Below, in pieces: positions 15,900-33,865 of a stretch of 59,120 nucleotides of DNA. The stretch covers positions 1 to 59,120 of the forward strand of contig JAHFAO010000001.1 of the NCBI GenBank assembly GCA_023250515.1. Reading direction: 5' to 3'. Numbering within the stretch: position 1 is the first letter of the stretch; every line of letters begins with the position of its first letter. The notes under the pieces were generated by a model that saw nothing but the letters and a program-made list of their open reading frames with translations, had not been told where the DNA came from and did not search any database. Both the position numbers and the translations under genes were made by a program. Origin of the DNA: Deltaproteobacteria bacterium (GTDB taxonomy: Bacteria > Desulfobacterota > Binatia > UBA9968).

Positions 15900-17072
15900 C
15901 TAGGGAGTTGGCCTGTCGAAGCCAGCGCGGAGCAATCTCCAGCCCCACTTGCACCCCAGCCTTAAGGGACGCATCGGGTAATAGAGAAAGCCAAGGGAGG
16001 AAGGGAGTCGAAGGAGGCGGTAATCCGCAATCGTCGGAACAAGGAGGGTATGAAAAAGAGAGGGGAGAGTTTCTGAGGGCCCTCCCAACAGGCGACTGAG
16101 GAAAAGAGCAGCCTTGATCGTGTCGCTCGGGGAGGGGTTATCGGGGAAAAGTTTAAGCCACGTTGGAAGAACCCTGAGAGAAAAAATTGCTGGGATCGGT
16201 GTATCAAAGAGAGCATGGCAGGCGCTTAGGGTAAGCGATACGATCTCCTCCCACCCAAAACGCTTTGCCTTTTCTCTTACCTTCTCCCAATCAATCTTCC
16301 CAAGGGAGCAAACCTCGTGGATATCAACGAGCCACTTGAGCCCTTGCCAGCGGTGACGGGCGGCATGAGTAATAAGAAAAAGAAGCTCCCACTCGGGGCT
16401 TAATCTATAAGCGGGAACCCCGAAGTAGTTTTTTGGTCGAGCCTCAGCCCAGAGGTCCTCCGTGGAGTCTCCATCGAATGGAGTCCCACCTAGAACTCCC
16501 CAGTGGATTTCAAGCACGTAACAGATCCCTCTCTCCTCCCGGACCAGGCCGTATTCAATATTGGTAGCCAGCAGGAGGTCAGCGAAAAATCGTTCCGTGA
16601 CCTCGGCTCTGTACCCTCTTGCGAGAATAAGATGAAAACCCTGAGGCACCATCTGACGCGGAACAAGGATGTCGATATCCGCGCAGGTTCTAAGCGTTAT
16701 ATCACCATAGAGGGATTCGGCCAGTGTAACGCCCTTCAGCGGAATCACGGGCACTTGAGCCTCATCGAGCAGCCGCAACACTTGTGTGAGCTCCTGAGCA
16801 AGAAGCGTATTTCGAAGGGCGTTAATCCGGTAGGAGGCCTCTAGCTCCGTGCGGATGTCTACGGGAACACCAGGAAACCCCAGCATCTGAAGGTTATGAT
16901 AGAGTAAGGGAAACACACCTTGCGCCGATGCAAGCCCAAGGACCCTTTCCCAGCAGAGCGTCGTCGCGAGCAACGCGCGGGCTTGCCCCTGCACATGAGG
17001 AACGAGTTCTCTCCTTGCGAGAAGCAGGCAGAGCTGATCTTCGGAAAATGATATCGGTTCGGATCCCGGCAT
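15900..17072 (-). CDS. uncharacterised nucleotidyltransferase family protein (NTP_transf_5-like), paralog 3
   Basis: Layout shared with 25725-26900 and the N-terminal part of 18688-20439: LLLARxxL..., WERVLGLASAQGVFPLLY, DIDILV, EIHW, HAARHRWQGLKWLVDI. Confidence 0.7.
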   Translation of the reverse strand: MPGSEPISFSEDQLCLLLARRELVPHVQGQARALLATTLCWERVLGLASAQGVFPLLYHNLQMLGFPGVPVDIRTELEASYRINALRNTLLAQELTQVLRLLDEAQVPVIPLKGVTLAESLYGDITLRTCADIDILVPRQMVPQGFHLILARGYRAEVTERFFADLLLATNIEYGLVREERGICYVLEIHWGVLGGTPFDGDSTEDLWAEARPKNYFGVPAYRLSPEWELLFLITHAARHRWQGLKWLVDIHEVCSLGKIDWEKVREKAKRFGWEEIVSLTLSACHALFDTPIPAIFSLRVLPTWLKLFPDNPSPSDTIKAALFLSRLLGGPSETLPSLFHTLLVPTIADYRLLRLPSSLGFLYYPMRPLRLGCKWGWRLLRAGFDRPTP

Positions 17073-17078
17073 TTACTT

Positions 17079-17873
17079 TTAGTAGTGGCTGAGGGTTCCA
17101 GTGGCCCTTACACGACGCACCCCTAGGCTAAACCCGACGAGGCTCAGAGGCAGGCCGACCACACCAAAGAGGGCCAGCATCCAGATTTGCGGAAGGAGCT
17201 CTACCACAGCACCTCCTCCAAGCAGGGCCGCCCGCATCCCCTCCAGCGCGTGAGTGATGGGCAGCAACTGGGCGGTTTGTTGGAGAAATGGGGGTAGCAC
17301 TTCAAGAGGGTAGAACACACCGCCTAAAAGCCATGAGAGACTACCGAAGAGCCAGAGCAACGGGTCTCCCCGCTTAAAGACCAATGTAAATGTAGCGGAG
17401 ATAATGCCGATGCTGCTGAAGGCCAAAAGAGAGAGGAGGAAGAGGAGAAGCGCGGCCGTAAGGTTGGCCCGCGCAAGGGATAGACCGAACAAAATCCCGC
17501 CGAGGAGGTAGAGCCCGGCATCCACCACAGCGCGCAAAAGTGGGTACAGGGAGGAAAAGAACATGAGGGATAGGGGAGATATCGGCGTGGCCAACACTGC
17601 CTTCAGTGTCCCCATTAGTTGATTACCTCTGATCCCTTGAGCAAAACAGGCCAGGGAGGTGGTCATGTAGCCGTTGACAGCCATGCCGACCAGGATGAAC
17701 GGGAAAGAGGCATAGCCTTGGGTTGTCTTCTCGCCCAAGAGCTGGGCAAGAAAATAAAAGGCCGCGATGCCGAGCAGTATATCGAGAGCTTGAAGGGAAA
17801 AAGAAAGCTTATAACTCACGTCGGTTAGCAGGTCCCGCTTAAAAAAAGCCCAGGCTTTCCATGCCCCTTGCAT
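17079..17873 (-). CDS. ABC-2 type transporter permease
   Basis: 264 aa with about 6 TM helices. Directly abuts the ATPase gene (stop/start 17873/17874). Confidence 0.8.
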   Translation of the reverse strand: MQGAWKAWAFFKRDLLTDVSYKLSFSLQALDILLGIAAFYFLAQLLGEKTTQGYASFPFILVGMAVNGYMTTSLACFAQGIRGNQLMGTLKAVLATPISPLSLMFFSSLYPLLRAVVDAGLYLLGGILFGLSLARANLTAALLLFLLSLLAFSSIGIISATFTLVFKRGDPLLWLFGSLSWLLGGVFYPLEVLPPFLQQTAQLLPITHALEGMRAALLGGGAVVELLPQIWMLALFGVVGLPLSLVGFSLGVRRVRATGTLSHY

Positions 17874-18665
17874 TCAGCGCTCCGCACCCACAGCTCTCTC
17901 AAAGGCCGCTGCCAGGTCCCCCGCCCCAAGAGCCCCTTTTACCTCCGAGGGAGTGCCCACACTCAAAATGCTTCCCTGGTGCATGATTGATACCCTGTCG
18001 CACACCTCCTCGGCCTCCGCTAGGCTATGCGTAACGAGAAGCACCGTTTTCCCCATCTCCTCTGCCAGAGTCCTGCGGAGAAACCTCCGAACCTCTTGCT
18101 GCAACAGTGGGTCAAGACTTTTGGTCGGCTCATCGAGAAGTAGGATAGATGGATCGGTAAGGAGAGCCCGGGCTAGAGAGAGCCGCTGCTTCATCCCCTC
18201 CGAAAAACACTGAAAAGCGGCATGCCTTGTACCGTCCATACCTACCAAGTCCAATAATACTCCAATTTTCTCCTTCGCCTTCCTTGGTGGCAAATCGTTC
18301 AGCAGGGCGAAGAATTCGAGGTTTCCCAGTCCCGTAAGCCGGGGATAGAAACTCTGGGATGCCGAAGGGCAGTACCCCACGATCTTTCTCACCTGGGCCG
18401 CCTGCCTTACCAACTCATAACCCCCCACCCACACACGCCCGCTCGTAGGGAGAAGAAGAGTCGAGAGAATCTCCAGGAAGGTGCTCTTCCCTGCGCCGTT
18501 TGCACCAAGCAAGCCCAAAACCTCGCCCGTGAAGATTTCCAGATTAATTTTCCTCAAGACCTCTATCCGCTCTGGGCGAAAGGGGTGCCGGAGAAGTGTT
18601 TTGAGGTTCTTTGCCGTGGGGAAGGTTTTTGAGAGGTTCTGGACAGAGATAGCCACGCTGTTCAT
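17874..18665 (-). CDS. ABC transporter ATP-binding protein
   Basis: Walker A GANGAGKST, signature SEGMKQRLSLA, Walker B ILLLDEP, H-loop THS. Confidence 0.92.
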   Translation of the reverse strand: MNSVAISVQNLSKTFPTAKNLKTLLRHPFRPERIEVLRKINLEIFTGEVLGLLGANGAGKSTFLEILSTLLLPTSGRVWVGGYELVRQAAQVRKIVGYCPSASQSFYPRLTGLGNLEFFALLNDLPPRKAKEKIGVLLDLVGMDGTRHAAFQCFSEGMKQRLSLARALLTDPSILLLDEPTKSLDPLLQQEVRRFLRRTLAEEMGKTVLLVTHSLAEAEEVCDRVSIMHQGSILSVGTPSEVKGALGAGDLAAAFERAVGAER

Positions 18666-18687: not shown

Positions 18688-20391
18688 TCAAACGCCCACT
18701 GCTATGCCGTCACCTCTGGCAAGTCGTTCGGCGGCAAGCTGGTCGAGCGCCTTCTCTATCCGCCACAGGTACATGACGTGGCAAGCACCGTCAGCATCCA
18801 TCATCAGCTCTGTCTGAAGCGGTATCCAGTTCCCCATATCGGTATAAAGGGAGACGATACGGGCTCCCGGCCGGAGCTCCTCCTGAAGTTTTGGCAAGAT
18901 ACTGATGTTCCATGATGGGGTCATAAACAGGGTCACAACTGTGGCTGACGACAAATCCACCGCCATCGCATCCTGCCGCACAAACGTAACGAGGTGATCT
19001 ACGCCTTCTTTACAGGCATTGGCGTTAGCCTCCGCAATGCGCTCGGGGTCGATATCAATGCCAACGCCCCGGGCACCGTATCGCTTGGCCGCCTGGATCA
19101 CGACCCTTCCATCCCCGCAGCCAAGATCATAGACTATGTCTGCCGGAGTCACCTCGGCCAAGGACAGAACGCTCTCAACCAATTCCATTTGGGTTGGCAC
19201 AAACGTCACTGCATCCGAGGGCAATCCTAGAAGGCGCTTCAATGGCGCCAATTCACATTGTTGGAGAAGTCGGATAGGACGAATCAGAGGGTAAAGGAAG
19301 GAGAGGGAGACCGGCAACTGCACGAATGTCCAGTCCCCTGGGCTCGGAGTCAGCGTGCGTGAGAGAAGATAGCGAACCTTCTCTCGCCAGCTCTCTCTTG
19401 TCCTGAGATGAAAAAGGGAGCTTTCCAAAATCTCAGGCGGGCTAACGGTCTCCCGCAAGAACCGCTCACGCACCTTTGTGGTTAGAGCCTCCACCTTCGG
19501 GTCAACTTGAACCCTTTGTAATACTTCCGCCGGAAGATTTGCGCCTAGCAGTTCAGCCGCGAGTCTAAGTCCAAGGAAGAGCATGCGCTCAACGCCTAGC
19601 CTGCGGGATTGTTCCAGGACCTGTTGCCAGTCCATCCGCTCGTGCGCTCGGATCAGCTCGGCAACATCGCAGATCCTTCCCAACCGCCCCCAGAGGTAAG
19701 TGGCGCCGTCCACGCAGAGGATGAGAAGCAGATCCTCTGGCGAGAGGGTGCATAGTGTCCTGCCCCCAAGGGCTAGCGGCTGAAGACGTTTCCACAAGCG
19801 CTCGACATCGAGCGGCAAAGAAAAATATTCCGCTGCGACCCCCCAGTGTAGTTTCACAAAGACACCGCCCCCCTCACGTACAAAGATCTCTTCAGATTTT
19901 GTCTGCAGGTAGGCCGCTTCTTGAGTGTGAGAGAGAGGGAATCGGGGCTGATATCCTCGGGAGAGCAGCAGTTCTTTGGCCTTTGGAACCTCTCGTGGGG
20001 AAACCAGAAGGTCCAGGTCGGCGAATTGCCGAAGCCCAAGGTTTCCGTAGACAGACGCGGCCAGGAGCGGGCCTTTGTAGGAGAGGGCACGGATTCCATG
20101 CTCTTCAAACATGTTCAGGAGGGAGAGGAGTTCCCCTGTTAGGAACAGGTTGCGCTTGATGTTGCTGTGAAAATGGCCCTGCAGTTGCTTGAAAATAGAC
20201 CCAGGAACAGCCCCAGGGCAGGTTGCGTTCAAGTGCCAGTAAAGGAGTGGCAACATCGCGTGCGGGAATGCCTTCCAAAGCAAATAGGCCCAGTTTACTC
20301 CATCTTGAACTAGGGCTCTGATCCGTTCGGCTCGTCCCGAATCCAACTGGATCCGAGCACAACAGAGGAGCAGCTCATCCTCCAGGCGCAT
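18688..20391 (-). CDS. fusion protein: NTP_transf_5-like nucleotidyltransferase (N) + class I SAM-dependent methyltransferase (C)
   Basis: The N-terminal ~380 aa is paralogous to 15900-17072 (LLLCCARIQ..., DLDLLV, KLHW). The C-terminal ~170 aa has SAM motif I VYDLGCGDGRVV and GVGIDIDP. Start set at Met17; the track start at 20439 is a TTG. Confidence 0.75.
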   Translation of the reverse strand: MRLEDELLLCCARIQLDSGRAERIRALVQDGVNWAYLLWKAFPHAMLPLLYWHLNATCPGAVPGSIFKQLQGHFHSNIKRNLFLTGELLSLLNMFEEHGIRALSYKGPLLAASVYGNLGLRQFADLDLLVSPREVPKAKELLLSRGYQPRFPLSHTQEAAYLQTKSEEIFVREGGGVFVKLHWGVAAEYFSLPLDVERLWKRLQPLALGGRTLCTLSPEDLLLILCVDGATYLWGRLGRICDVAELIRAHERMDWQQVLEQSRRLGVERMLFLGLRLAAELLGANLPAEVLQRVQVDPKVEALTTKVRERFLRETVSPPEILESSLFHLRTRESWREKVRYLLSRTLTPSPGDWTFVQLPVSLSFLYPLIRPIRLLQQCELAPLKRLLGLPSDAVTFVPTQMELVESVLSLAEVTPADIVYDLGCGDGRVVIQAAKRYGARGVGIDIDPERIAEANANACKEGVDHLVTFVRQDAMAVDLSSATVVTLFMTPSWNISILPKLQEELRPGARIVSLYTDMGNWIPLQTELMMDADGACHVMYLWRIEKALDQLAAERLARGDGIAVGV

Positions 20392-20448
20392 GCTGGGTAT
20401 GAAGGCCCTGTTAACGGGCACAGGCCAAGTCCTCCTCAACCAGGCTCA

Positions 20449-20616
20449 TCATGACATAGCCGCATCCATCGCCCCGGCAACTTTCATTCTTGTAATCTTT
20501 TCTATGGTACCGTAGACGGTCAGCTTCGGCGTCTGATAAGGCCTCTTCGGAGATTTTTTGACGTCCTTCTTCTCGTAAAGGTTTTTCTCTTCCGCCGTCA
20601 CCAGCTTTGTCTCCAT
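20449..20616 (-). CDS. lasso peptide precursor A2 (55 aa; below the ORF-track cut-off)
   Basis: My translation is METKLVTAEEKNLYEKKDVKKSPKRPYQTPKLTVYGTIEKITR|MKVAGAMDAAMS. The leader fits YxxPxLx3Gx5Tx, with Thr at -2. The predicted core has Asp at position 8 and a C-terminal Ser. It starts 12 nt after the cyclase C2 stop. Confidence 0.75.
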   Translation of the reverse strand: METKLVTAEEKNLYEKKDVKKSPKRPYQTPKLTVYGTIEKITRMKVAGAMDAAMS

Positions 20617-20628
20617 CGCAAGTTTGGT

Positions 20629-22506
20629 TTACGCGGCCAGGCGCGTCTGGCGGAGCCAGAGGGCCAAGGTTACGGTTTTCCAGATTGTGAGAGCGTCCTT
20701 ATATCCTGTCCCAGCAAGATACCGTTTGTAGGCTTCTCGCAGTTGAGACGTATCCACGTATGGTAAAATAACCTGAGGATTCCTCAGGATCACATCTTCC
20801 AAGATGCCGCGCTCAAAGGCCAGGAGCCCACGGGTGAAGTTGGGGCTGAGATCCGCTTTGCCCCCTCGCCAGCGCACCTCCTCGGGAAGGATCTTCTCCA
20901 TAGCACGGCGCATAACGACCCTGTTCCACCCCTGGTAAAGCTTTTGTTCGGGCGGCAGGGCCAGACAGAACTCGGCCAATCGCTTATCGAAGAAGGGGTA
21001 CCTTGGCTCGATCGAAAAGGCACTGGCAGCTTTGTCGAGCACCTCCAGAGCATATGCATTAAGTCCGGAGGTAAGCTCACGCCAGTGGCCCTCCCTCGAG
21101 ATGCGTGCTCGCCTTGGCATATGCCGCCGCAGCATTTGAGCACGGTCAGGCAGTCCGACATGCCGAGCAAATTCGCGGTTCATGACGGCGCCGCCATCCC
21201 ACGACCGCCACGCCTTGCGGATGGGTTCAGGGATCAGAGGATTGAGGATATACCTCCAGAGGAACCACCATGGCGCGCGGTTGAAGCGCTGCCCGAGGCG
21301 GGTAACCTCTTTCGCCAGCGCGACCCACCGCCCGCTACGCGCCAGCTCCTCCAGGTACGCAAGACCGTGGGACACGGTGGTATCTCCGTCCATGCCGTCC
21401 AGGAGGACACGAACGCCCTGACCGTGGGCGGTGCTGTATAGCCCTCCCCAGAACATGAAGAGGTTCGGGACCCAGAAGGGTTCATCCTGGTGGTAGAAAA
21501 CCCGGTCCAAATCGGTGAGAGGGCTGAGCCGGTCAGCATGCACGTAATGAGGCTTGAGCCCGTTCTGGGCTAGGACAGCCTTGATAAAAGGCCGCTCATC
21601 GCATTCCTGCACCTCGTCATAGATCGCTGAGAACGTGTGCAACTGAGTGTTCCCGTGTGCTGGGAGGAGTTTCCGCGCCACGCACACAATAGAAGAAGAG
21701 TCCAGCCCACCGCTCAGCAGAGAGCCTACCGGAAAGGCGCTCCGCAGACGGCACCTAACCGCCTCGGTGAAGAGCTCACGAAAAGCCTCGGCGTACTCCT
21801 CATCCGACCGGAGCCGCAGTTCGCGCGAAGGGTCGAGGAACCAATAGGGTCGAACCGATACTTTCTCAGCGCTCAGGGTCATGCTGTGGCCCGGAGGAAG
21901 CCGAAAGATCTCTTGGTAAAAGGTGATGGCCTCGTCTTCAAGCATCGGCACCAGGTACTCAGCCACTCTGGTCTCGTTGAGGCGGCGGGGGACCTCAGGG
22001 ATGCAAAGGAGTGCTTTGATCTCTGAGCCAAACACGAACGCGCTGCCTGAGCGATGATAGTAATAGAATGGCTTTACCCCAAAATGGTCTCTGGCGCAGA
22101 AGAAGCGGTGCTCCCTTCCATCCCAGATGGCAAATGCAAAATCCCCCAACAACTTTGCCGGACAGTCCTCGCCCCACTTCTCGTAAGCCCTGAGGATCAG
22201 AGCAGCGTCCGTGATCCGCCTTTTGACGTGTCCGTCAATCCCCAAGCTGCCGATAAGCTCGTCCCGATTATCGATGCGGGCATCAGCGGTGATGGCCAAT
22301 TGCCCCATCGCATCAACCACTGGCTGCTTTTCGTGAATGGATTCTGGGGTAGTGTTGAGCAATCTATGGCCTAGACCCACCGTGCCATTGATCCAGCAGC
22401 CCTCACCATCGAGCCCCCGGTGGGCAATCCTCGCCACCATCCGCTCCAGGTCTTCTTGATCAACGAGCCCGCCATCAAGGAGATAAATACCGGCGATGGC
22501 GCTCAT
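20629..22506 (-). CDS. lasso peptide cyclase C2 (asparagine synthetase-like lactam synthetase)
   Basis: AsnB fold with N-terminus MSAIAGIY, so the Cys2 glutaminase nucleophile is absent. PP-loop LSGGLDSS. Adjacent to B1, B2 and a precursor. Confidence 0.88.
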   Translation of the reverse strand: MSAIAGIYLLDGGLVDQEDLERMVARIAHRGLDGEGCWINGTVGLGHRLLNTTPESIHEKQPVVDAMGQLAITADARIDNRDELIGSLGIDGHVKRRITDAALILRAYEKWGEDCPAKLLGDFAFAIWDGREHRFFCARDHFGVKPFYYYHRSGSAFVFGSEIKALLCIPEVPRRLNETRVAEYLVPMLEDEAITFYQEIFRLPPGHSMTLSAEKVSVRPYWFLDPSRELRLRSDEEYAEAFRELFTEAVRCRLRSAFPVGSLLSGGLDSSSIVCVARKLLPAHGNTQLHTFSAIYDEVQECDERPFIKAVLAQNGLKPHYVHADRLSPLTDLDRVFYHQDEPFWVPNLFMFWGGLYSTAHGQGVRVLLDGMDGDTTVSHGLAYLEELARSGRWVALAKEVTRLGQRFNRAPWWFLWRYILNPLIPEPIRKAWRSWDGGAVMNREFARHVGLPDRAQMLRRHMPRRARISREGHWRELTSGLNAYALEVLDKAASAFSIEPRYPFFDKRLAEFCLALPPEQKLYQGWNRVVMRRAMEKILPEEVRWRGGKADLSPNFTRGLLAFERGILEDVILRNPQVILPYVDTSQLREAYKRYLAGTGYKDALTIWKTVTLALWLRQTRLAA

Positions 22507-22946
22507 AGGCTTTCTTCCTCTACAGCAGACAAGGGAGTGTAGCGTCCCAGTTCTGATCCGCCAATGACAATCCTGCCTTGGCTTTCCACCCAGGCGTGGG
22601 CGTTCAACCTCCCTCCCTCGCCCTTAGCGACGCCAATGTGTAGACAAGCCGGGCACCCCCGACGGGCAAGCAGCACCTGTGCAGCCAGGGCTTCTGTGAG
22701 ACAGTTGCTCCCGCCAGGCGCAAACCGGCTTGCTACCGTCACCGCCCAAGCGATCCGATCTTGAGATGATGAGTCAGCACGGTATAGGGTAGCAGGCGCG
22801 CGCCCTACACGATCCAGAAAGCGCCGAAGGGTCTGAAACGGAACTAGCCACAGCCCAAGTCTGATCGCCCAGATCAGGATAACAGACCTTAGCAGGAGGC
22901 CACGCTCAGTCGGTGGCAGGAGTAAAAACTTACGGACCTGCTTCAT
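22503..22946 (-). CDS. lasso peptide leader peptidase B2 (transglutaminase-like cysteine protease)
   Basis: 147 aa with an N-terminal hydrophobic segment. SNCLTEALAAQVLLARRG (catalytic Cys) and NAHAWVE (His) match lasso B2 proteins. 4-bp overlap with C2. Confidence 0.85.
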   Translation of the reverse strand: MKQVRKFLLLPPTERGLLLRSVILIWAIRLGLWLVPFQTLRRFLDRVGRAPATLYRADSSSQDRIAWAVTVASRFAPGGSNCLTEALAAQVLLARRGCPACLHIGVAKGEGGRLNAHAWVESQGRIVIGGSELGRYTPLSAVEEESL

Positions 22947-23292
22947 CCCTTATCTCGACAAGTTCCTCCGCCGCCAGTTTTTGAAGCAGCTCCAGCAGGT
23001 CCTGCCAACAGCGTTCGGTTTCGACGTCGTACTCTATCAGAAGGGTATCCCGGACCTCGTTTGCCGTCGTTGGTTTTTGGATCAGATTCCAGATTCGGGC
23101 CCCAACAGTGTCGAGACCGTAGTACACTCCATTCCTGAGATTGAGGATAGCCATTTCTCCTCCCAGGTCACAGGAGACCTGATCCTTGGCCGCTACAATG
23201 ATTGAGGATGCCGAGATCGTGTTCGCCATGGGGTTCAGTGGTAGCTCCCACTGACAAGGTAATACAGCGAGAAATTCTGGATAATATTCCAT
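22930..23292 (-). CDS. lasso peptide B1 / PqqD-family RiPP recognition element
   Basis: GGEMAILNLRNGVYYGLDTVGARIWNLI...EVRDTLLIEYDV...DLLELLQKLAAEELV is the PqqD/RRE pattern. The true start may be Met22, at 23229. Confidence 0.85.
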   Translation of the reverse strand: MEYYPEFLAVLPCQWELPLNPMANTISASSIIVAAKDQVSCDLGGEMAILNLRNGVYYGLDTVGARIWNLIQKPTTANEVRDTLLIEYDVETERCWQDLLELLQKLAAEELVEIRDEAGP

Positions 23293-23375
23293 CCCATTCC
23301 GTGTACTGTCAAGAAAATTGTTGCTCTACAACGAAAGTGGGGTCTATTGAGGTGGGATGGAGGTTGGTGGTAGGC

Positions 23376-23543
23376 CTATTTGCTCATGGCCGGCCCTGCA
23401 GGATTGTCCATCATCGTTGATGGAGCTGCTGCATGCGTCAGCTCACGAATATCTCCATATAAAACCAACTGAGGAGAATGATACGGTCTCTTCTGGAAAA
23501 CCTCGCTGGTCTGCTCTTTGGGCTCCTTCACTTGGTCGGTCAT
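23376..23543 (-). CDS. lasso peptide precursor A1 (55 aa; below the ORF-track cut-off)
   Basis: My translation is MTDQVKEPKEQTSEVFQKRPYHSPQLVLYGDIRELTH|AAAPSTMMDNPAGPAMSK. The leader fits YxxPxLx3Gx5Tx. The core starts with Ala and has Asp at position 9. The ATG overlaps the cyclase C1 stop as ATGA, and a GGGGA lies 6 nt upstream. Confidence 0.85.
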   Translation of the reverse strand: MTDQVKEPKEQTSEVFQKRPYHSPQLVLYGDIRELTHAAAPSTMMDNPAGPAMSK

Positions 23544-25438
23544 ACACAATCCCCTTGGGTTACAGTCGCTTGTCCCAAGAAACTACGGATCGGCACACAG
23601 ACCGCGCCGCTCCTACTCTGCAGCCAACACTCCAGGTTTACTGGAGCGGTGATCATAGCATATCTCACCACGCCATCCGCCTTGTATTGTTCCACCGCCT
23701 GCTGATAAGTCCCTCTGTCGACATAGTTCTCTCCGACAATTCCCAGTTTGGTATCGAGGGTGTCCGGTTTCGTGGGATGGCTGAGACGCGCGTGCATAGG
23801 ATCTCCGGCCAGAGCCACCTTAGGCCGAGTACGAATCGGCTCCGGCAATATGCCGCGCATGGCTTCGCGATGGATTGTCTTCCTATAGCACCAAGGCAAC
23901 GTAGGGATCGCCAGCAAGAAAGTGATCAGCCTTACGTCAAAGAAGGGATGCCGTATTTCTATAGGCAGAACGCTGGCATACCAGAGCTCAAAGAGCTCTG
24001 ACCATAGTGGCAAACGTAACAAATGGAGGGCATCGAGATGGCTGCAACCATCCAAAGTCACCTCCCGGTTGTAAAACTTTCGCACGCAATGCTCCCAGCG
24101 CTCCCGCAAGCCGATCCGCGCTGCAAACTCCGGCCGAATCCAGTTGGGGTACTCGGGACGCCAATCATCTTGCCCAAGCAGCCCTTGCAGTCCCGATCGA
24201 AGGCCGAATCCCTTCAAGCTCCGAAACCTCCTTACATGGCGAGCGGCCTCCACGAGAAAACGGCCTATGTGCCCACGCCTCAGTAAATCCACACTATAGG
24301 AACATGATCCAGCCATGGCCGGGTCGCCGCCAAGACCCGTGAGAACCACAGAGCTTTGGCCTGCAAGTAAATGGAGAAAGTCAACCCACATCGCCATGGT
24401 CGAGGCCTCGACGGGCTGCTGGCTCCGCATCTCCGGCTCGTCCCACCGCTCGAAGAGTCGGTAGGGATCCGCGACTAAATAATCGACAGGAATCCCCAGA
24501 GTCTCTACGACGAGCCCGGCAAAATACTTTTCATGGTCATCGGGTAGCAAGCGGTCATGAATGATCGTATAGGCACGCACCTCACCATGGTTTCGGCACA
24601 GATACTTGGAAGCGATGGCCGCCACCGCAGTGGAGTCCATCCCCCCGCTCATCATGCAGGCGACACGATCTGTGCGCAACCGATCCTCTACTGCAGTACG
24701 AAGGAGCTTCCGGAAATGAGCCACGTAGTCGTCATCATTTGCATATCGGATATAGCCACCCGTTGGTAAGGTCCAATAGCGATCGAGTCGTGGTGTACCT
24801 CGCGTCACGATAAGCCGATGGGCAGGCATGAGGCGCCGGATGTCCCGATAAATAGTCGTAGATTCATCCTGGTTGCCGCCAAAGAGCAGAAAATCTCCGA
24901 CGGCAAGTTCGCTCAGCGCACTCGACACACCAGGATGCTGGCGCAGGGTGTCGACGTCGCTGGCAAAGAGCAGGCTGCTCGCGGTTTGAGCATAGTAAAG
25001 CGGCTTCACTCCAAAATGGTCGCGAGCGCAGAAGAGGCGTCGCCTTCTTCCATCCCAGATCGCAAAAGCAAAATCGCCAAGCAGGTGCTTGACGCAGTCT
25101 TCCCCCCAGACGTGATAGGCCTGGAGGATAAGCTCTACATCCGCTACAGCTTTAAGATCACTGCGACCGTTGTACTCAAACTCCTGAATGAGATCCCCCC
25201 GACCATCCACTCGCGCATCGGCAGTTATCCACACCTGACCGTCCAGGCTACGTGGCTGTTGCTCGCGCAGCGACTCTCGTGTTGTGCGCAGCAACACATG
25301 GCCAAAGCCCACATGACCGTCGATCCAGATCCCTCGCGCATCAGGCCCGCGGTAGGCCACGATGCCGAGCATCTGCTGCAAGAGCTGCCGGTTCACAGGG
25401 GCACCGTCCAGGTTAACGATTCCAACGATGCCGCTCAT
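23540..25438 (-). CDS. lasso peptide cyclase C1 (asparagine synthetase-like lactam synthetase)
   Basis: N-terminus MSGIVGIV lacks Cys2. PP-loop MSGGMDST. By eye roughly 40-50% identical to C2. 4-bp overlap with the upstream PqqD gene. Confidence 0.88.
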   Translation of the reverse strand: MSGIVGIVNLDGAPVNRQLLQQMLGIVAYRGPDARGIWIDGHVGFGHVLLRTTRESLREQQPRSLDGQVWITADARVDGRGDLIQEFEYNGRSDLKAVADVELILQAYHVWGEDCVKHLLGDFAFAIWDGRRRRLFCARDHFGVKPLYYAQTASSLLFASDVDTLRQHPGVSSALSELAVGDFLLFGGNQDESTTIYRDIRRLMPAHRLIVTRGTPRLDRYWTLPTGGYIRYANDDDYVAHFRKLLRTAVEDRLRTDRVACMMSGGMDSTAVAAIASKYLCRNHGEVRAYTIIHDRLLPDDHEKYFAGLVVETLGIPVDYLVADPYRLFERWDEPEMRSQQPVEASTMAMWVDFLHLLAGQSSVVLTGLGGDPAMAGSCSYSVDLLRRGHIGRFLVEAARHVRRFRSLKGFGLRSGLQGLLGQDDWRPEYPNWIRPEFAARIGLRERWEHCVRKFYNREVTLDGCSHLDALHLLRLPLWSELFELWYASVLPIEIRHPFFDVRLITFLLAIPTLPWCYRKTIHREAMRGILPEPIRTRPKVALAGDPMHARLSHPTKPDTLDTKLGIVGENYVDRGTYQQAVEQYKADGVVRYAMITAPVNLECWLQSRSGAVCVPIRSFLGQATVTQGDCV

Positions 25439-25728
25439 AGCGACTCGCCTCTCTCGCCAATCTCCACCAATCCATTCTCTAACAGCTTCTCAATCAAATC
25501 CTGGAGGTCGCTGCGCAGCAATTCTCCATCCACATCATATTCAGCTAATAAGACCTCATAGGCCTTCTCGATCGACTCCGATGAGGATAGGACAGCCAAC
25601 ATTCGGGTCCCCACGTCGTCCAGACCGAGATAGCGCTCGCTATTGAGATTAAGAATGACGGATTCACCTCCTATGTCGCGCATGAGAACGTGCGTAGGCA
25701 CTGAGACCCGTGTCGTAAACGCTATCAC
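25435..25728 (-). CDS. PqqD-family RiPP recognition element (second stand-alone copy)
   Basis: 97 aa. GGESVILNLNSERYLGLDDVGTRMLAVL...AYEVLLAEYDVD...DLQDLIEKLLENGLV. Confidence 0.85.
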   Translation of the reverse strand: MIAFTTRVSVPTHVLMRDIGGESVILNLNSERYLGLDDVGTRMLAVLSSSESIEKAYEVLLAEYDVDGELLRSDLQDLIEKLLENGLVEIGERGESL

Positions 25729-26900
25729 GATTTTACTGCCTCCCGATTCCAGAATTTACAAGCACCCTGTAGAGCCCGATGGACATAGAGCCCGGGTAGC
25801 ATCGCGCGGCTGGCGGTCGGGTAGTGGTTGAGTATGTAATCCGCTGGAGGAAAAACATGTTCCTTAAGCAACTGCAACTTGTCGCGCCAACGAGCAAGGG
25901 TACGGAGATCCGATAGCAACACATCTATCCGTTGCTGATAGGGTTTGAGAAAACTAGCTGTCGCTTCGCCCAACAGAGGGTTGTTATCTTCCTGCAACGT
26001 CTCCATGAGATCCACCGGTAAGGGTGTAGAAAAACGATGCTGTGCCAGTCTCAGACCAGCGGCACAGATGGTTCTAAGCCGTTTATCTATGGCAAGCTTG
26101 GCAAATGCCTCATGCTCTTCAGGCTTCATCTGGCTTACCAGCAAATGAATGTCATAAAGCCAGATCAGACAATCGCTATTCTGATGGTGCGCGACGCGAT
26201 GCACGCACGCAAGCAGCAGGGCATGTGCTGGATCTAAGGCCCGTGCATGTTCTCCCAGCGCATGCAGAGGTATGGCACGGCTTGCCAGTTCATTGTAGGA
26301 CAAAATATCGGCAAACAGCAGAGGGTTGCTGATTTTCCAATGGATGTCATAGACGTGGGGGATGCCATGCCCGTCTTCTTTGGCGTACATGCACTGGTGC
26401 ATGATAAACCTGCCGCTTACCATATGAAGCCGTTTGAAGCCGAGCTCGGCCAGCACCTTTTCTGTCAGGCTGATATCCTTCGGGTGAATCAGCAGGTCGG
26501 TATCGTTGCGTGGGCGCAGGCCCAAGAAAGGATAATGCGTATAGGCCAAAGCCGTTCCCTTAAGGATTAACGCCTGGACACCGCGTTCTGCCAAGGATTC
26601 AAGAGCTGAGATTAGTTCGCGTTCAAGAAGCAATTGCAGAGAGACCTGACGTATCGCTACAGATTCAAGCGCCGCACGAATACCAGTAGGCCAGTCTTCC
26701 CGCGCCGAGGTCCGGCTGAGTTGCTTGTAGATCAACGGCGTCACACCGTGCAGGAGGCACGCCTCTAAAAAGTCCGCCTGATCCTCAGTGCCGGCGGATG
26801 GAGACCAACTTGGCGTCTCGCCCCGAATTATGGCGCACAGGAGTTTCTGAAAGCAGACCGATTGGAGTCCGGCCGAATTTTTCGCGAACGCAGGGATCAC
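25725..26900 (-). CDS. uncharacterised nucleotidyltransferase family protein (NTP_transf_5-like), paralog 1
   Basis: Same architecture as 15900-17072 (LLHGVTPLIY, NDTDLLI, DIHWKIS, HRVAHHQNSDCLIWLYDI). Confidence 0.7.
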   Translation of the reverse strand: MIPAFAKNSAGLQSVCFQKLLCAIIRGETPSWSPSAGTEDQADFLEACLLHGVTPLIYKQLSRTSAREDWPTGIRAALESVAIRQVSLQLLLERELISALESLAERGVQALILKGTALAYTHYPFLGLRPRNDTDLLIHPKDISLTEKVLAELGFKRLHMVSGRFIMHQCMYAKEDGHGIPHVYDIHWKISNPLLFADILSYNELASRAIPLHALGEHARALDPAHALLLACVHRVAHHQNSDCLIWLYDIHLLVSQMKPEEHEAFAKLAIDKRLRTICAAGLRLAQHRFSTPLPVDLMETLQEDNNPLLGEATASFLKPYQQRIDVLLSDLRTLARWRDKLQLLKEHVFPPADYILNHYPTASRAMLPGLYVHRALQGACKFWNREAVKS

Positions 26901-26940: not shown

Positions 26941-28089
26941 CTATTGACTGTATTTTTTCGACAACTCGCCGACCCGATTCATAGCATCCCTCCAGGTGGC
27001 GAACCGGGTGGGGAAGCGAGATGAAATCTGGCGAGCAATCTCTCCCAAAGAATTAATGCCGTCCATCAACCCTATAATGAAGAGATCGATCTGCCCCTCC
27101 TCGTTCAGCATCGGCACATGGCTACTTGTCCGTTTACGTAGATACGTTGAGGACAAAGGCGTACCAAAAAAGGTTGATTGTGCAAAGCTGGCTTTAATCC
27201 GCCTCGTATCACCCTGATCCAGGATGCAGGTGTTCCAACGCCAGATGTAGTCCTCACCGATCAGCCTGGCCTGCAGGACAACAGACACCATGTCACCAAC
27301 GGCGAGCGGGACAGGTTGGGACAAGGGGAAGAAAGCATTACCGTAGATGAGTTCAGGCTCACCGGGGGCATTGGTAAGATGAACGCCTTCGGCAAGCGCT
27401 GCGTCGAACCAGAGACTAAGCCCGTGTGCCACTCCCGCACGCGCCACAGTCCAGGTCAATTCTCCGCTAACGTCAGGACTCTCCACTACGGCATAATCGA
27501 GGATAGCCCAAGATTGCGGCTCCACCAAGAGTTGCTCCGGAGTAACCTTGACCTTGCCCCAGGTGTTCGTCACGATCTGGCGAGCTACTCGCATATCGAG
27601 ACCATAGCCGTTGTGATCCCAGGGATTGGTGTGCTGCCCATACAAGTCCGGGGCCTCCACCACCGCAACCCATAAGGTGTCTCGCCGGGGGATCAACGTC
27701 CCGCCGGGCGCCAGAAAACGCCTCCGGGCATCAATCACAGAAGGTATATGAGAGGCGAATAGGGGAAGCACGCCACGCAGGTCGGAGACAATAACATCGG
27801 CTCGCTCTGGTAGAGTGACCTCGGTGGAGCGGCTTTGAATGAACTCGATACGCTCAGCGTAGCCGTTAGCGGCAGCGGTTTCTCGCGCCACCTCGATGGC
27901 GTCATCCGGCTCGATGGCGTACACCCGGCGGGAGCCGAGCTGGCAAGCGAGCAGAGCAAAGATGCCGGTGCCGGTGCCAATGTCGAGGACGACTGAGCCG
28001 GGTTTGATGACCTGCCTCAGTGCCCGCATGTAGGCATCCATGCGCAGGTTGTCCACGATCATCTTGCCATAGGCGAAGATACTATACAT
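26941..28089 (-). CDS. PRMT/PrmA-like class I SAM methyltransferase with PqqD-like C-terminal extension
   Basis: DNLRMDAYMRALRQVIKPGSVVLDIGTGTGIFALLA...RVYAIE...ADVIVSD matches the protein arginine methyltransferase core. The last ~70 aa (LNEEGQIDLFIIGLMDGINSLGEIARQISSRFP...) resemble a PqqD winged helix. Confidence 0.7.
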   Translation of the reverse strand: MYSIFAYGKMIVDNLRMDAYMRALRQVIKPGSVVLDIGTGTGIFALLACQLGSRRVYAIEPDDAIEVARETAAANGYAERIEFIQSRSTEVTLPERADVIVSDLRGVLPLFASHIPSVIDARRRFLAPGGTLIPRRDTLWVAVVEAPDLYGQHTNPWDHNGYGLDMRVARQIVTNTWGKVKVTPEQLLVEPQSWAILDYAVVESPDVSGELTWTVARAGVAHGLSLWFDAALAEGVHLTNAPGEPELIYGNAFFPLSQPVPLAVGDMVSVVLQARLIGEDYIWRWNTCILDQGDTRRIKASFAQSTFFGTPLSSTYLRKRTSSHVPMLNEEGQIDLFIIGLMDGINSLGEIARQISSRFPTRFATWRDAMNRVGELSKKYSQ

Positions 28090-28107: not shown

Positions 28108-29136
28108 TCAAGGCAGCAAAAACCCCGAAGACCGCCCGTCGCCTGTCACGTTGCCAATATGACGGGTCGGGGCGCAAAGATCGTCGAGGACGAGGTCGCA
28201 GAGTTTAGTCAAGTAGACCGGGTTTGCATTGGGGACTAAGCGCCGTAAACGGACGTGCCTGATAAGCCGACCCAGGATTTCGAACTCCTGGGCGCGCATA
28301 CGCTTGTCCAGCACATAATTGACGTATGTGTTTCTAACCAATGTAATCAGACTAGCTTGGGCCGGGACAGTCTCAATCGAAGGTGCCGACGGATCCATAC
28401 TTCGCTCACCCAGAATGTAAATAGCAGCGAGGGGCAGTGGCCGCCGTTGAAAGTGATAGCCGCTCTGTTTTAGATCCAGGTAACGTTTATCCCAGGTCGG
28501 CGTCAGGCGCGGCAACACCTCCGGCGAGCCATAAAGGGCGTTTACCGACTCTGGCCAGAGTCGTAGACCTGGATAACCAGGCTGGATGAAGAAACTGGAA
28601 CTTTGATCCGTTAAGGCAACGACATCGTCCGATAACACCGGATAGCCTAGAGTTGCAAAGAACGCCGCCGTGGTCGATTTGCCTGCGCCAGCCGCACCCA
28701 GAAAGGCAATGGCTTCACCGCCTACCGCAATAGCACTGGCATGCAAGCAAGTAACACCACGCAGCCTCAGGACAAACCCCAGGATCGGACCAAGTAGGTA
28801 AGTCGCCATGTTCTCAATGGTCTCTTCAGAAGGCCACTGGGCCCAGATTCTCGATCCTCGATGATCGAGCAGGAACTCTGTACCGTCCCTGTAGACCCAA
28901 TGGTAGAGCGTCTGGTCCCTTGCCTGCTGGACAATTAACTGTGGGACTCCATCGCCATCCGCATCCGAACTAACGTAGCGCGTAACATAAGGACAAGAAT
29001 TCATCCTCAGCAACGTGGCCACAGGATAACCTAGCTGTAAGTCAACATCGCTCTCGCTCAATGACGGCAAGCTCTTCAAGCCTGGAACAGCTCGGTTGGA
29101 GCAGATACTAAGGCCATACGCAAAGTAGTGAAACAC
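28108..29136 (-). CDS. HprK-related kinase (lasso-cluster-type Ser kinase)
   Basis: LHASAIAVGGEAIAFLGAAGAGKSTTAA P-loop in the HPr kinase C-terminal-domain arrangement. Lies next to lasso genes. Confidence 0.75.
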   Translation of the reverse strand: MFHYFAYGLSICSNRAVPGLKSLPSLSESDVDLQLGYPVATLLRMNSCPYVTRYVSSDADGDGVPQLIVQQARDQTLYHWVYRDGTEFLLDHRGSRIWAQWPSEETIENMATYLLGPILGFVLRLRGVTCLHASAIAVGGEAIAFLGAAGAGKSTTAAFFATLGYPVLSDDVVALTDQSSSFFIQPGYPGLRLWPESVNALYGSPEVLPRLTPTWDKRYLDLKQSGYHFQRRPLPLAAIYILGERSMDPSAPSIETVPAQASLITLVRNTYVNYVLDKRMRAQEFEILGRLIRHVRLRRLVPNANPVYLTKLCDLVLDDLCAPTRHIGNVTGDGRSSGFLLP

Positions 29137-29155: not shown

Positions 29156-30379
29156 TTATTGAGCACCGACATCAGCGGTGCGCCGGAGGAAACGTTTCAC
29201 GCGACCCGGCACACCTCGCGGAAGGAGTAGCCGAGCAGCAAAGCTCACTAGTCGAGGCTGAGCCACTAGGAGTCGCAGAAACATCTTGGCTAGCTCGTCC
29301 CGCGTGTAGCGACCCAGCAAATGAGTAGTCTTGCCATCAAGTAGCTCCAGCAGCCTGTCATAGTCAGCGCTGCTTAGTCGGTTCAAAACCGACCTCATCA
29401 GGAGGTGAAGGCCGAGCTCGCGGCGAAGCGGTCCGAGTTCTTTTCCGTAGTTACCTTGTCCCAGGATCGCCTTGGCTGCGGCCTTCGCGCCCCATAGGCC
29501 AGACACGAGCCCACCTACTGTTGTGACTTTGACCTGCCCCGCGGCATCCCCAACCAGATAGATATCGCAATCGGAAACTCGTCCCCACGGTCGTGGGGTA
29601 TGAGCATAGACGGAAATCTTGGCTGCCTGGATTTCGATCGGTTCCAGCCGTCGGCAAGCAAGGAATCGTTCCAGGTTCTCCTTGGCGTCGCACCCTTCCT
29701 CTGCGATGAGGCCGACTGCTCCACGGTCATGTGATTCTGGGATCAGCCAGTAAAAGTATGGCGTCGTCTCCGGATCAAACCACACCTGCGCAGTATCCGC
29801 TTCCCTCCCTGAAGGGAGGCGAACAATAGCCTGCAATATTGGAACGGTGGCCCGACTATTCCGCTCTGCGATCTTCGCCACGCGGCTAAAGGCACCGTCA
29901 GCGCCAATCAGGGTTGCGGTTTTGAACTCCTCTATTAGATCTAGCTTGACATTTCGGACTTTAACCGTGACGCCACCCACTGCAGGGGCAAAGTTGAGAA
30001 ATTTGTACCCACTTCGGATCTCAGCCCCTGCTTGAATTGCCTTCTCTGCGAGTAGCCGGACTATGGCCGCCCTCTCCACCACGAGATCCGGCTCGGTCAT
30101 CGGTATTGTGGCAGATCGATGAGGGGAGAAGAGATCAATTCGGTTTATTCGGTTGACGATAGCCTCAGAGGGAAAAAATCCCAGAACCTCGGTCAACTGC
30201 GATGTGGCAATCAGCGTGCGAGGTGACGTTCGCAACACGTCATTCGCGTCAAACAAACGGACTCTGACACCGTCGCAAGCAAGAAGGTACGCGGCAAACA
30301 AACCGGCTGCCGAGCCACCGATAATCAAGGCTTCTGATGGAGCTCCTTTTGACTTAACCGAGATTTCACTTCGGTTCAT
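29156..30379 (-). CDS. FAD-dependent oxidoreductase (geranylgeranyl reductase-like)
   Basis: N-terminal dinucleotide-binding fold ALIIGGSAAGLFAAYLLA...VRLFD. Later LIGADG and VGDAAG motifs of the GGR/flavin monooxygenase family. Confidence 0.75.
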   Translation of the reverse strand: MNRSEISVKSKGAPSEALIIGGSAAGLFAAYLLACDGVRVRLFDANDVLRTSPRTLIATSQLTEVLGFFPSEAIVNRINRIDLFSPHRSATIPMTEPDLVVERAAIVRLLAEKAIQAGAEIRSGYKFLNFAPAVGGVTVKVRNVKLDLIEEFKTATLIGADGAFSRVAKIAERNSRATVPILQAIVRLPSGREADTAQVWFDPETTPYFYWLIPESHDRGAVGLIAEEGCDAKENLERFLACRRLEPIEIQAAKISVYAHTPRPWGRVSDCDIYLVGDAAGQVKVTTVGGLVSGLWGAKAAAKAILGQGNYGKELGPLRRELGLHLLMRSVLNRLSSADYDRLLELLDGKTTHLLGRYTRDELAKMFLRLLVAQPRLVSFAARLLLPRGVPGRVKRFLRRTADVGAQ

Positions 30380-30384
30380 CTTGA

Positions 30385-31017
30385 TCAGCCCGTTGCGGTA
30401 TCGTACGTGCGGCTTACGCCTTCAACCCCGTATACGCCATCCCTGCGGACGAGGATCACGAACGCCTTCGCCAAGATATAGAAATCCAACCATAAAGACC
30501 ATTGATTGACATACCAGAGATCCAAACGGATCCGCTCTTCCCACGGTAGCTGATTCCGCCCGTGAATCCATGCCCACCCGGCCATTCCCGGTCTGAAGTC
30601 AAACCGTCGCCTCTCCGACGACGAGCAATAAGCGGCCTGGCTTGGCACCCAGGGCCGCGGACCGACGATGCTCATCTCACCCTTGAGAACATTGAGGAGC
30701 TGCGGGAGTTCGTCCAACGTCCAAACACGCAGGAACCGTCCCACACGGGTAATGCGAGGATCGTCTGCCGTGACGTTGAGTCCCTCTCCGCGCGCCTCAG
30801 CCCCACTGACCATTGTGCGGAATTTGTAGCAGCGAAAGATCCGTCGCCCTTTCCCAACGCGATCCTGTACGAACAGGACTGGCCCTCCATCATCCAGCTT
30901 GATAGCTAGTGAAATCAGGGCAATCAGGGGAGAAAGCAGGAGCAGAACAGCTCCGGCTACGACCAGATCAGTAGCCCGCTTCAGCGCGAGTGCTATTTGC
31001 CCCCGAAAAGGAAGCAT
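30385..31017 (-). CDS. polyprenyl-phosphate sugar phosphotransferase (bacterial sugar transferase, priming enzyme)
   Basis: [11 protein letters not shown]..., [46 protein letters not shown] are canonical WbaP/EpsL-type C-terminal domain motifs. The start is uncertain (Met11 used). Confidence 0.85.
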
Positions 31018-31894
31018 CGAAGTTCTTCTTTTTAGAAACCCTCGCAACTAACGCCTCCCGTGCCATCATCAAGACACACCGCCCCAAGATTCCAGCCCCT
31101 ACGGTAGCGTCTTGCAAGGAATTGCGCCGGAAATGCTTCGCATAGTAGCGCCACATGCTCCGATGGCGCTCAACAGCCATCAGGACGGGAGACTGGCGGC
31201 TGCTGCCGCCGATGTGGTGGAGCACCTGCATCCCTGGGTGATAGTGAACCTTCCATCCTACTTGCCTGGCCCGAAGGCAAAAATCGACATCTTCGCAATA
31301 CATGAAAAACCGCTCGTCCAGGCCACCGATGTCATCCAGGACCACGCGCCTGTGAAGCAGGCAAGCGCCAGAGACCCAGTCCACCTCCCGTATGCTCGTA
31401 TGGTCCCAGTCGGTGTGGAGGTACTCTCGTGAGTAGCGGTTTTGCGGGAGCCAGCGCGTCAGTAGGGAATAACGGTGGAACAGGATAGTTCGATACAACG
31501 GGAACGAACGGCAGGAGAGCTGGATAGTCCCGCCGGGATCGACAATCTGAGGGCCGATGATCCCTACCTCGGGTTCCCGTTTCAAGTATCGAAGCAGCTC
31601 CGTCATCCCACCGTCCAAAATCTCCGTGTCAGGATTGAGCCAGAGGATGTATCGTCCATTGGTTTTTTCCAACCCCTGGTTCACTCCAGCGGCAAACCCC
31701 AGATTGCGGTCATTGGCAATGATCTGAACACCGGGAAACCGGTTCCCGATCAACATCCTGGTGCAATCGGTCGAGGCGTTGTCCACAACGCAGACCTCGC
31801 ACGTAATGCCCGACAAGCATGATTCGATCGACGTGAGACAACGCGCCAGGTATGGAGCGGCGTTGTAGTTGACGATAATGATGGAGAGGTCCAT
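30968..31894 (-). CDS. glycosyltransferase family 2
   Basis: LSIIIVNYNAAPYL...VVDNAST... and the DxD-type region LNPDTE. GT-A fold pattern. Confidence 0.85.
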   Translation of the reverse strand: MDLSIIIVNYNAAPYLARCLTSIESCLSGITCEVCVVDNASTDCTRMLIGNRFPGVQIIANDRNLGFAAGVNQGLEKTNGRYILWLNPDTEILDGGMTELLRYLKREPEVGIIGPQIVDPGGTIQLSCRSFPLYRTILFHRYSLLTRWLPQNRYSREYLHTDWDHTSIREVDWVSGACLLHRRVVLDDIGGLDERFFMYCEDVDFCLRARQVGWKVHYHPGMQVLHHIGGSSRQSPVLMAVERHRSMWRYYAKHFRRNSLQDATVGAGILGRCVLMMAREALVARVSKKKNFDASFSGANSTRAEAGY

Positions 31895-33859: not shown

Positions 33860-33865
33860 AATTTG

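Follow-up and report, generated by a model that had tools for sequence, protein, structure and literature searches.

A small reading frame overlapping a lasso-cyclase-like gene of a Binatia contig as a probable lasso-peptide precursor

Does a 55-codon reading frame that starts within the last codons of an asparagine-synthetase-like gene encode the precursor of a lasso peptide, and which of the enzymes encoded around it would act on the product? This question is raised by a contig assigned to a deltaproteobacterium of the Binatia (assembly GCA_023250515.1, contig JAHFAO010000001.1, positions 1 to 59,120), and we refer to this whole stretch of 59,120 nucleotides as the window. The reading frame, A1, lies directly after C1, a gene for a lasso-cyclase-like homologue of Asn synthetase, and an earlier note on this DNA had named it as a lasso precursor. 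We find that A1 carries the leader motif of such precursors, is conserved in related loci and is under purifying selection. We judge it probable that A1 is a genuine, translated lasso-precursor gene whose product is matured by three neighbouring proteins: B1a, a predicted recognition element for peptides that are made on the ribosome and modified after translation (a RiPP recognition element, RRE), the leader peptidase B2 and the cyclase C1. A1 almost certainly encodes a lasso precursor, and as such it is an ordinary further member of a large, widespread and as yet unstudied branch of the well-known lasso class. All window features given below are on the minus strand.

The A1 gene and its closest relative

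A1 occupies 23376..23543 (ATG to TAG, 55 codons plus the TAG), and its translation, MTDQVKEPKEQTSEVFQKRPYHSPQLVLYGDIRELTHAAAPSTMMDNPAGPAMSK (read from 23543 to 23376), is identical to the peptide given in the earlier note. C1 ends in GAT TGT GTA TGA, and its TGA (23542..23540) overlaps the A1 ATG (23543..23541) as ATGA, just as that note had described. A Shine-Dalgarno-like AAGGGGA sits within the 3' end of C1 at 23550..23556, 7-13 nt upstream of the A1 start codon. The leader comprises residues 1-37 (23543..23433), and its last portion, YHSPQLVLYGDIRELTH (23433..23483), is the part predicted to be recognized by the RRE and the protease. With numbering that starts at the cleavage predicted to follow Thr-His, this portion carries Y-17, P-14, L-12, G-8 and T-2, which bears out the motif proposed earlier. 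The predicted 18-residue core, AAAPSTMMDNPAGPAMSK (residues 38-55, 23432..23379), likewise agrees with the earlier description in having Ala first and Asp at position 9, and it continues in a nine-residue tail, NPAGPAMSK. The remarks on annotation fared less well. A1 is indeed invisible in a 60-residue open reading frame (ORF) track, but gene callers do call it: the exact 55-residue product is called, among the same neighbours, in both ENA ERZ27301951 and Logan SRR14366780, which are independent public assemblies. "Unannotated" thus fits that track and not the gene.

Could A1 nevertheless be a chance reading frame, or an unexpressed and decayed relic? The gene is small, it gave no Pfam hit in a profile search of the cluster ORFs, and it scores under the NCBIfam cut-offs. 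When the A1 peptide itself was searched against 5.8 billion proteins, the sole match was the window's own protein, which implies that close relatives are rare or uncalled, and the core has a single relative across the databases searched. Against this stands the rarity of the motif. We defined a full pattern that begins with Y..P.L...G.....T., has Asp or Glu at core positions 7-9, and reaches a stop 10-45 residues on. Translated in all six frames, the window contained two matches, A1 and a second candidate precursor, A2, against a mean of 0.02 expected per window when it was simulated 150 times with a first-order Markov model. Both sit immediately 3' to a gene resembling Asn synthetase.

The closest relative of the locus is found on a contig of a Candidatus Binatia metagenome-assembled genome (MAG), referred to as L001. 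Its cyclase, the only one there, is 82% identical to C1, and the locus is syntenic with the window, with orthologues that are 77-93% identical (93% for B1a, 78% for B2, 89% for the ABC ATPase and 91% for the ABC-2 permease). Two tandem small ORFs directly follow the L001 cyclase (L001 7902..8271). The first has a leader ending in ...KKPYHSPHLVLYGNIRDLTR and the core TGNPSVVFDNPSPNPMSK, and it retains both the ATGA overlap and the upstream AAGGGGA; the second, L001b, has a leader ending in ...KKPYHSPHLVLYGNIRELTH and the core AASPRTMMDSPAGPAMSK. Across codons 18-55 of A1 and L001b, which cover motif and core, dN (nonsynonymous divergence) is 0.097 and dS (synonymous divergence) is 0.611, giving dN/dS ∼0.16, and 12 of the 19 differences fall at third codon positions. 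In the same comparison, the first 17 A1 codons are unconstrained. The motif and core of A1 are thus under purifying selection. Taken together with the chance expectation, the identical protein in independent assemblies, the Shine-Dalgarno-like site and ATGA overlap kept in L001, and a family profile match of E = 2e-14 (see below), this leaves a chance frame or relic very improbable, and because A1 is conserved we regard that explanation as effectively refuted. A scan of genome contigs with an alignment of three sequences recovered the L001 contig only, and the same scan of JGI metagenome contigs gave no matches. As side observations, the first L001 core is Thr-first, and a D-N/S-P segment after Asp9 is common to the peptides of the window, L001 and two further loci, L005 and L006.

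The wider cyclase clade

More distant relatives of C1 (36-57% identical; Acidobacteriota, Chloroflexia and others) are followed immediately by one or two motif-bearing small genes, and K-20, Y-17, P-14, L-12, Y-9, G-8 and T-2 are invariant among six precursors from four phyla, in agreement with a profile hidden Markov model (HMM) alignment. By cyclase alignment we retrieved 80 further loci (L008-L087), 75 of which had enough downstream DNA to evaluate, and we looked on the cyclase strand for a motif-bearing small ORF no more than 900 nt from the stop of the cyclase. Such an ORF directly follows the cyclase in 71 of the 75 loci (cyclases 40-82% identical), and for about 43 of 74 candidate precursors the likely start and the 3' end of the cyclase gene overlap. 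The earlier note had considered a precursor placed after its cyclase to be the less common arrangement; in this clade it is the rule, and it is the paeninodin order as well. Where that note had allowed that homologous loci might lack the small ORF or its motif, we found the opposite, with two copies in L001 and a motif ORF in those 71 distant loci.

We then used an HMM of 72 foreign precursors to search the 1187 stop-to-stop segments of at least 30 residues in the window; the two L008 peptides, which sit on the Binatia contig that also holds L001, were left out of the model. A1 came out on top (E = 2e-14), followed by A2 (7e-12); the segment after these had E = 2.1. The family Asp aligns with Asp9 of A1 in this model, and Asp at core position 9 is the family consensus (51/74).

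The same precursors bear on the register of the predicted ring. A1 could be a lasso precursor that is cleaved one residue later, giving an eight-membered Ala-Asp ring, or one that is matured through cross-talk by the second RRE and second cyclase of the window, B1b and C2. The core begins with AAA, so a shift by one residue keeps Ala at position 1, and the leaders of A1 and A2 both read KRPYxxPxLxxYGxIxxxT. In addition, an acidic residue lies at position 10 from T-2 in 19 of the 74 precursors, which suggests that the register is not uniform or that cleavage does not always follow T-x. The spacing from T-2 to Asp9 in A1 is, however, that of the majority, and C1 and A1 overlap and are co-inherited with B1a in L001, which has neither C2 nor B1b. 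We consider another register or other enzymes to be unlikely for A1, and retain C1 and a nine-residue ring as the favoured assignment. In those 19 precursors the Asp at core position 10 is the only suitably placed acidic residue, which implies that their rings have 10 members or that cleavage is shifted.

The first core residue varies across the 74 precursors, with Thr in 19, Ala in 11, Asn in 11, Lys in 9, Ser in 8 and Gly in 6. Experimentally, Gly, Cys, Ser and Ala have been seen at this position (PMC12670498), a set that includes Ala1 of A1. In all, the clade amounts to hundreds of loci and spans Acidobacteriota, Binatia, cyanobacteria and others. It is likely under-annotated as a source of lasso clusters, with its cyclases named "asparagine synthase-related" and its precursors under curated cut-offs. 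NCBI, for instance, names the L001 orthologue of C1 merely "asparagine synthase-related protein," a bland name that is explained by C1 and A1 both missing these cut-offs. The analysis around A1 thus brings out a whole clade of kinase-linked, cyclase-then-precursor lasso clusters that is systematically under-annotated. A1 itself adds one predicted lasso peptide from a barely studied Binatia-like lineage; our literature searches on lasso peptides in Binatia found nothing. Apart from a modest extra interest in its dual-module architecture and candidate tailoring, a specialist would see here a routine product of genome mining in a little-explored clade.

Proposed maturation and the surrounding cluster

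The lasso cluster is of class II type, with a split B and an associated kinase. Upstream of A1, an NTP_transf_5 gene (25725..26900), B1a (25435..25728; 97 residues, PqqD family, PF05402) and C1 (23540..25438; 632 residues) are joined to one another and to A1 by 4-nt overlaps, so that the stop of each gene overlaps the start of the next, and an 83-nt gap follows A1. B2 (22503..22946), the sole lasso leader peptidase of the cluster, is 430 nt downstream of A1 and scores 112.5 bits on NF033537 against a cut-off of 33. B1a, encoded immediately upstream of C1, has the lasso RRE TbiB1 as its best match among solved structures in the PDB (E = 2e-8). C1 begins MSGIVG and C2 begins MSAIAG, so both are without the glutaminase Cys, in contrast to the true AsnB of the window (31895..33859), which begins MCGIVG. 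Both cyclases retain SGGxDS, and the ATP-pyrophosphatase motif of C1, SGGMDS, is intact.

By analogy with established lasso biosynthesis (PMC6784204, PMC13381572, PMC5067487), we propose the following route. A1 would be cotranscribed, and is probably translationally coupled, with the NTP_transf_5 gene, B1a and C1 through the 4-nt overlaps. The predicted RRE B1a would bind Y-17xxP-14xL-12 of the A1 leader, and the single B2 cysteine protease would cleave after Thr-2/His-1; in known systems the RRE recognizes YxxPxL and Thr-2 guides leader cleavage (PMC6784204, PMC13381572), and ring closure depends on ATP. C1 would then adenylate the side chain of Asp9 and couple it to the α-amine of Ala1, giving a nine-residue macrolactam with the tail threaded. 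The dehydrated core has a predicted mass of 1728.763 Da. Export of the product would fall to the ABC transporter (17079..18665; ATPase 17874..18665, ABC-2 permease 17079..17873). In L001, where the gene order is B1-C-A-A-B2-ABC with B2 and the ABC genes directly after the precursors, there is one cyclase and one B2. B2 therefore serves the C1-type module there, which supports the same role in the window.

Phosphorylation is the most specific tailoring step that we propose. The HprK-like peptide kinase of the cluster (28108..29136) has H132, G147xxGxGKS154 and D170D171 intact, and the H/GxxGxGKS/DD motif is needed for lasso-precursor kinases (PMC10368454). Homologues of this kinase occur in 74 of the 80 related loci, and a [K/R/M]-[S/T] pair is found near the C-terminus of 67 of 74 precursors; 71 of the 74 have Ser or Thr within the last four residues, usually not as the last. 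Based on the kinase and the pair, we infer that Ser17 in the M-S-K end of A1 may be phosphorylated, probably while the precursor is still linear, the stage at which the kinases of paeninodin and BsfA act. Lasso kinases act on linear precursors (PMC9266682, PMC10368454), and those of the paeninodin type on a C-terminal Ser (PMC9266682). The cluster could also reveal at which site an HprK-like kinase acts where the acceptor Ser is not C-terminal. Further groups may be attached by the NTP_transf_5 and methyltransferase proteins. The NTP_transf_5 family includes tailoring enzymes of the type of pseudomycoidin PsmN, which is annotated as a nucleotidyltransferase and adds hexoses to the phosphate (PMC8498205). 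The candidate methyltransferase is a PrmA/PRMT-like protein of 382 residues (26941..28089), 85% identical to its L001 orthologue and with homologues in 33 of the 80 related loci. L001 carries, in addition, a 2OG-Fe(II) oxygenase gene between kinase and methyltransferase (L001 2731..3339), which the window does not.

The same gene content also raises the possibility that A1 is a real RRE-dependent precursor whose product is not a threaded lasso. It would then be a branched-cyclic macrolactam or, by analogy with the linear polyphosphorylated peptides (LPPs), a linear peptide that is phosphorylated or glycosylated. The tail NPAGPAMSK has none of the classical bulky plugs, and the cluster combines two RREs, only one B2, an HprK-like kinase and three NTP_transf_5 genes. 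LPP clusters adjoining lasso clusters have that enzyme set, and LPPs share with lasso clusters a YxxP motif in the leader, a kinase of the HprK-like kind and an NTP transferase (PMC13381572). The polysaccharide genes around the cluster recall those Bacilli loci too. Against this reading stand the cyclase gene that overlaps A1 and the tie between precursor ORF and cyclase across the clade, and Asp9, conserved in the family, would be needless for a linear product. L001, moreover, has a single RRE and yet two such precursors, and a scan of the cluster ORFs between 13.7 and 35 kb gave no signal peptidase I of the archaeal type. We rejected an LPP-type reading as the main explanation, since LPP loci have that peptidase and no dedicated cyclase and no signal-peptidase-I-like gene turned up in this cluster. 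An unthreaded or linear product thus appears improbable, and a threaded lasso peptide is the outcome that we favour.

Several points count against the lasso assignment all the same. C1 reaches 400.6 bits on the lasso-cyclase model NF033535, whose cut-off is 525, and A1 falls under its own models, with 18.3 against 19 bits for NF033521 (lasso_leader_L3) and 20 against 33 for NF033528 (lasso_cyano). The scores of A1, like those of A2, are near misses on two models that were built on other clades. The candidates behind the clade statistics and the HMM were selected by a motif regex, so that part of their agreement at its fixed positions follows from the selection itself, while agreement beyond those positions (KKPY, YGxIRELT, D9) does not. 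Literature searches gave no experimentally characterized member of the C1 clade. The A1 tail has no aromatic or Arg plug, and its only bulky residues are Met16 and Lys18, which is weak for keeping a nine-membered ring threaded. Ser17 is penultimate, before Lys18, unlike the C-terminal acceptor of paeninodin-type kinases. Lastly, the assignment of A1 as a lasso precursor is a prediction that draws on sequence evidence.

Several features surround these genes. The first is the gap between A1 and B1b (22930..23292, a second PqqD/RRE in an ORF of 120 residues, 42% identical to B1a). A promoter-like TTGACA-18 nt-(TG)AATATT at 23283..23312, which resembles a sigma-70 site well, overlaps the annotated B1b start; it is a consensus match only, and the region is no richer in such sites than its shuffles. 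The second module might possibly have its own promoter in this gap. The true start of B1b is probably Met22, at 23229, because family matches begin at residue 29. No terminator-like site was found between A1 and B1b, and with the fold of the intergenic RNA not significant (z = -1.76), a terminator or attenuator after A1 was rejected.

Beyond the NTP_transf_5 gene next to B1a, profile searches identified a fusion of NTP_transf_5 with a lysine-methyltransferase-like domain (18688..20439) and a third NTP_transf_5 protein (15900..17072). The three paralogues are only 26-31% identical to each other. The fused domain resembles an archaeal protein-lysine N-methyltransferase (NF041081, 128 bits, under the cut-off of 200). 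The lasso cluster sits among genes for polysaccharide synthesis, which in the window extend over 29156..35050 and include Bac_transf, GT2, the true AsnB with Cys2, and GT4. This setting recurs in L001, L005 (1..5118) and L006 (1..5188), and it has been described for some Bacilli lasso clusters (PMC13381572). As a clade-wide trait it was rejected, such genes lying within 4 kb in 3 of 57 loci.

Characterized systems and the second module

In paeninodin the ring joins Ala1 and Asp9, as predicted for A1. Paeninodin resembles the window in that its precursor gene directly follows the cyclase (padeCAB1B2D, PMC5067487). Paeninodin-type clusters (padeCAKB1B2D of Paenibacillus dendritiformis and psm of Bacillus pseudomycoides) likewise have a split B, consisting of a PqqD-type RRE and B2, and also encode an HprK-like kinase and a protein of NTP_transf type (PMC8498205, PMC9266682). 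The window departs from this type in its host, which is Binatia-like and not a member of the Bacillota, and in its rearranged order, K-MT-N-B1-C-A-(B1b)-B2. The candidate acceptor Ser17 of A1 is followed by Lys, whereas in the paeninodin type the Ser is C-terminal. The PRMT-like methyltransferase and the lysine-methyltransferase fusion have no described counterpart, and literature searches on PRMT-like methyltransferases in lasso clusters found nothing. The spacing of the leader motif also differs: A1 has the actinobacterial-like Y-17/P-14/L-12, in contrast to W-15/P-12/L-10 in PbaA of Bacilli (PMC13381572). Thus, relative to characterized systems, the window joins a motif spacing of actinobacterial type with accessory genes of paeninodin type.

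Metagenomic lasso clusters of the Acidobacteria type, ordered B1-B2-C-A or B1-(kinase)-B2-C-A1-A2 (Negri et al. 2022, PMC9064862), taken together with the C1 clade retrieved here, have cyclases of the same clade as C1, at 40-60% identity. As for A1, their precursors come right after the cyclase, often overlapping it, and have the leader KKPYxxPxLxxYGxIxELT, Asp at core position 9, Ser or Thr near the C-terminus, and an HprK-like kinase nearby. In the window and L001, by contrast, B2 follows the precursor instead of preceding the cyclase, and the kinase is upstream. The A1 core ends in M-S-K where K/R-T-x is usual in those clusters, and its D-N-P-(A/G) segment recurs in the nearest relatives alone (L001, L005 and L006). 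Two other systems follow the recognition logic that is predicted for B1a, namely TbiB1-TbiA of Thermobaculum terrenum and TfuB1 (fusilassin) of Thermobifida fusca, in which Tyr-17/Pro-14/Leu-12 serve the RRE and Thr-2 the protease. Their clusters, unlike the window, are precursor-first and have no kinase, and their cores begin with Gly or Trp. Lastly, the HprK-like kinase BsfK of Bradymonas sediminis, whose motif is likewise H/GxxGxGKS/DD, phosphorylates the lasso precursor BsfA at a Ser that is not C-terminal, aided by the RRE (PMC10368454), which provides a precedent for Ser17 of A1. That site differs from A1 in being core Ser3 behind a leader with Ile at -2, and BsfK is distantly related to the kinase of the window.

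What further sets the window apart from characterized systems is the place of B2 after the precursor, together with a second, unrelated module of cyclase, RRE and precursor that probably shares this B2. L001 has no second RRE, no second cyclase and no A2-type precursor after one. The cyclase of this module, C2 (20629..22506), belongs to a different clade; it is 34% identical to C1 and scores 886.4 bits on NF033535 against the cut-off of 525. The 55-residue A2 (20449..20616) was recognized by the motif pattern and the family HMM, starts 12 nt after C2 and begins METKLV. Its leader ends in ...KRPYQTPKLTVYGTIEKITR and its predicted core is MKVAGAMDAAMS, 12 residues with Met1, Asp8, a four-residue tail and a C-terminal Ser. 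Its NCBIfam scores are 17.3 against 19 bits for lasso_leader_L3 and 28.1 against 33 for lasso_cyano. A2 is not called in the public assemblies that call A1, the gene caller having missed it in the ENA assembly. B2 is probably common to both precursors. With two RREs and two cyclases, near-identical leader motifs and one protease, the cluster would make a compact test bed for the way in which such a protease is shared.

One could read these features jointly as a natural hybrid, in which unrelated lasso modules, B1a-C1-A1 and B1b-C2-A2, share one leader peptidase, exporter and tailoring set. A1 would then yield a lasso peptide with modifications not yet described together, and the clade would be an uncharacterized sub-class with relaxed ring chemistry. 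As part of this reading, the non-terminal Ser of the conserved M-S-K end would be phosphorylated, after which NTP_transf_5 proteins would decorate the peptide and/or the PRMT-like or Lys-methyltransferase proteins would methylate Lys. We regard this joint reading as doubtful.

Other observations concern the second module and its relatives. The A2 core is seemingly too short to thread, and Met is not a reported first residue; its C-terminal Ser resembles the substrates of paeninodin-type kinases. The nearest C2 relative, in the Terriglobia locus L093, has a core that is likewise short, at 13 residues. Another genome, which is labelled as an uncultured Heliobacteriaceae MAG (L006 6001..10234 and L007 791..5024), shows the C-A-C-A doubling of the window behind a single B1-B2 pair, indicating that dual-cyclase lasso clusters with one protease recur. 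In addition, the chromosome of Methanobacterium sp. ACI-7 (NZ_CP166866.1) encodes an archaeal C2-like cyclase, 41% identical, followed by a motif ORF whose leader ends in ...YVKPEIKSYGKMEKLTL and whose core is AQSGTSKEGSQGMHMST.

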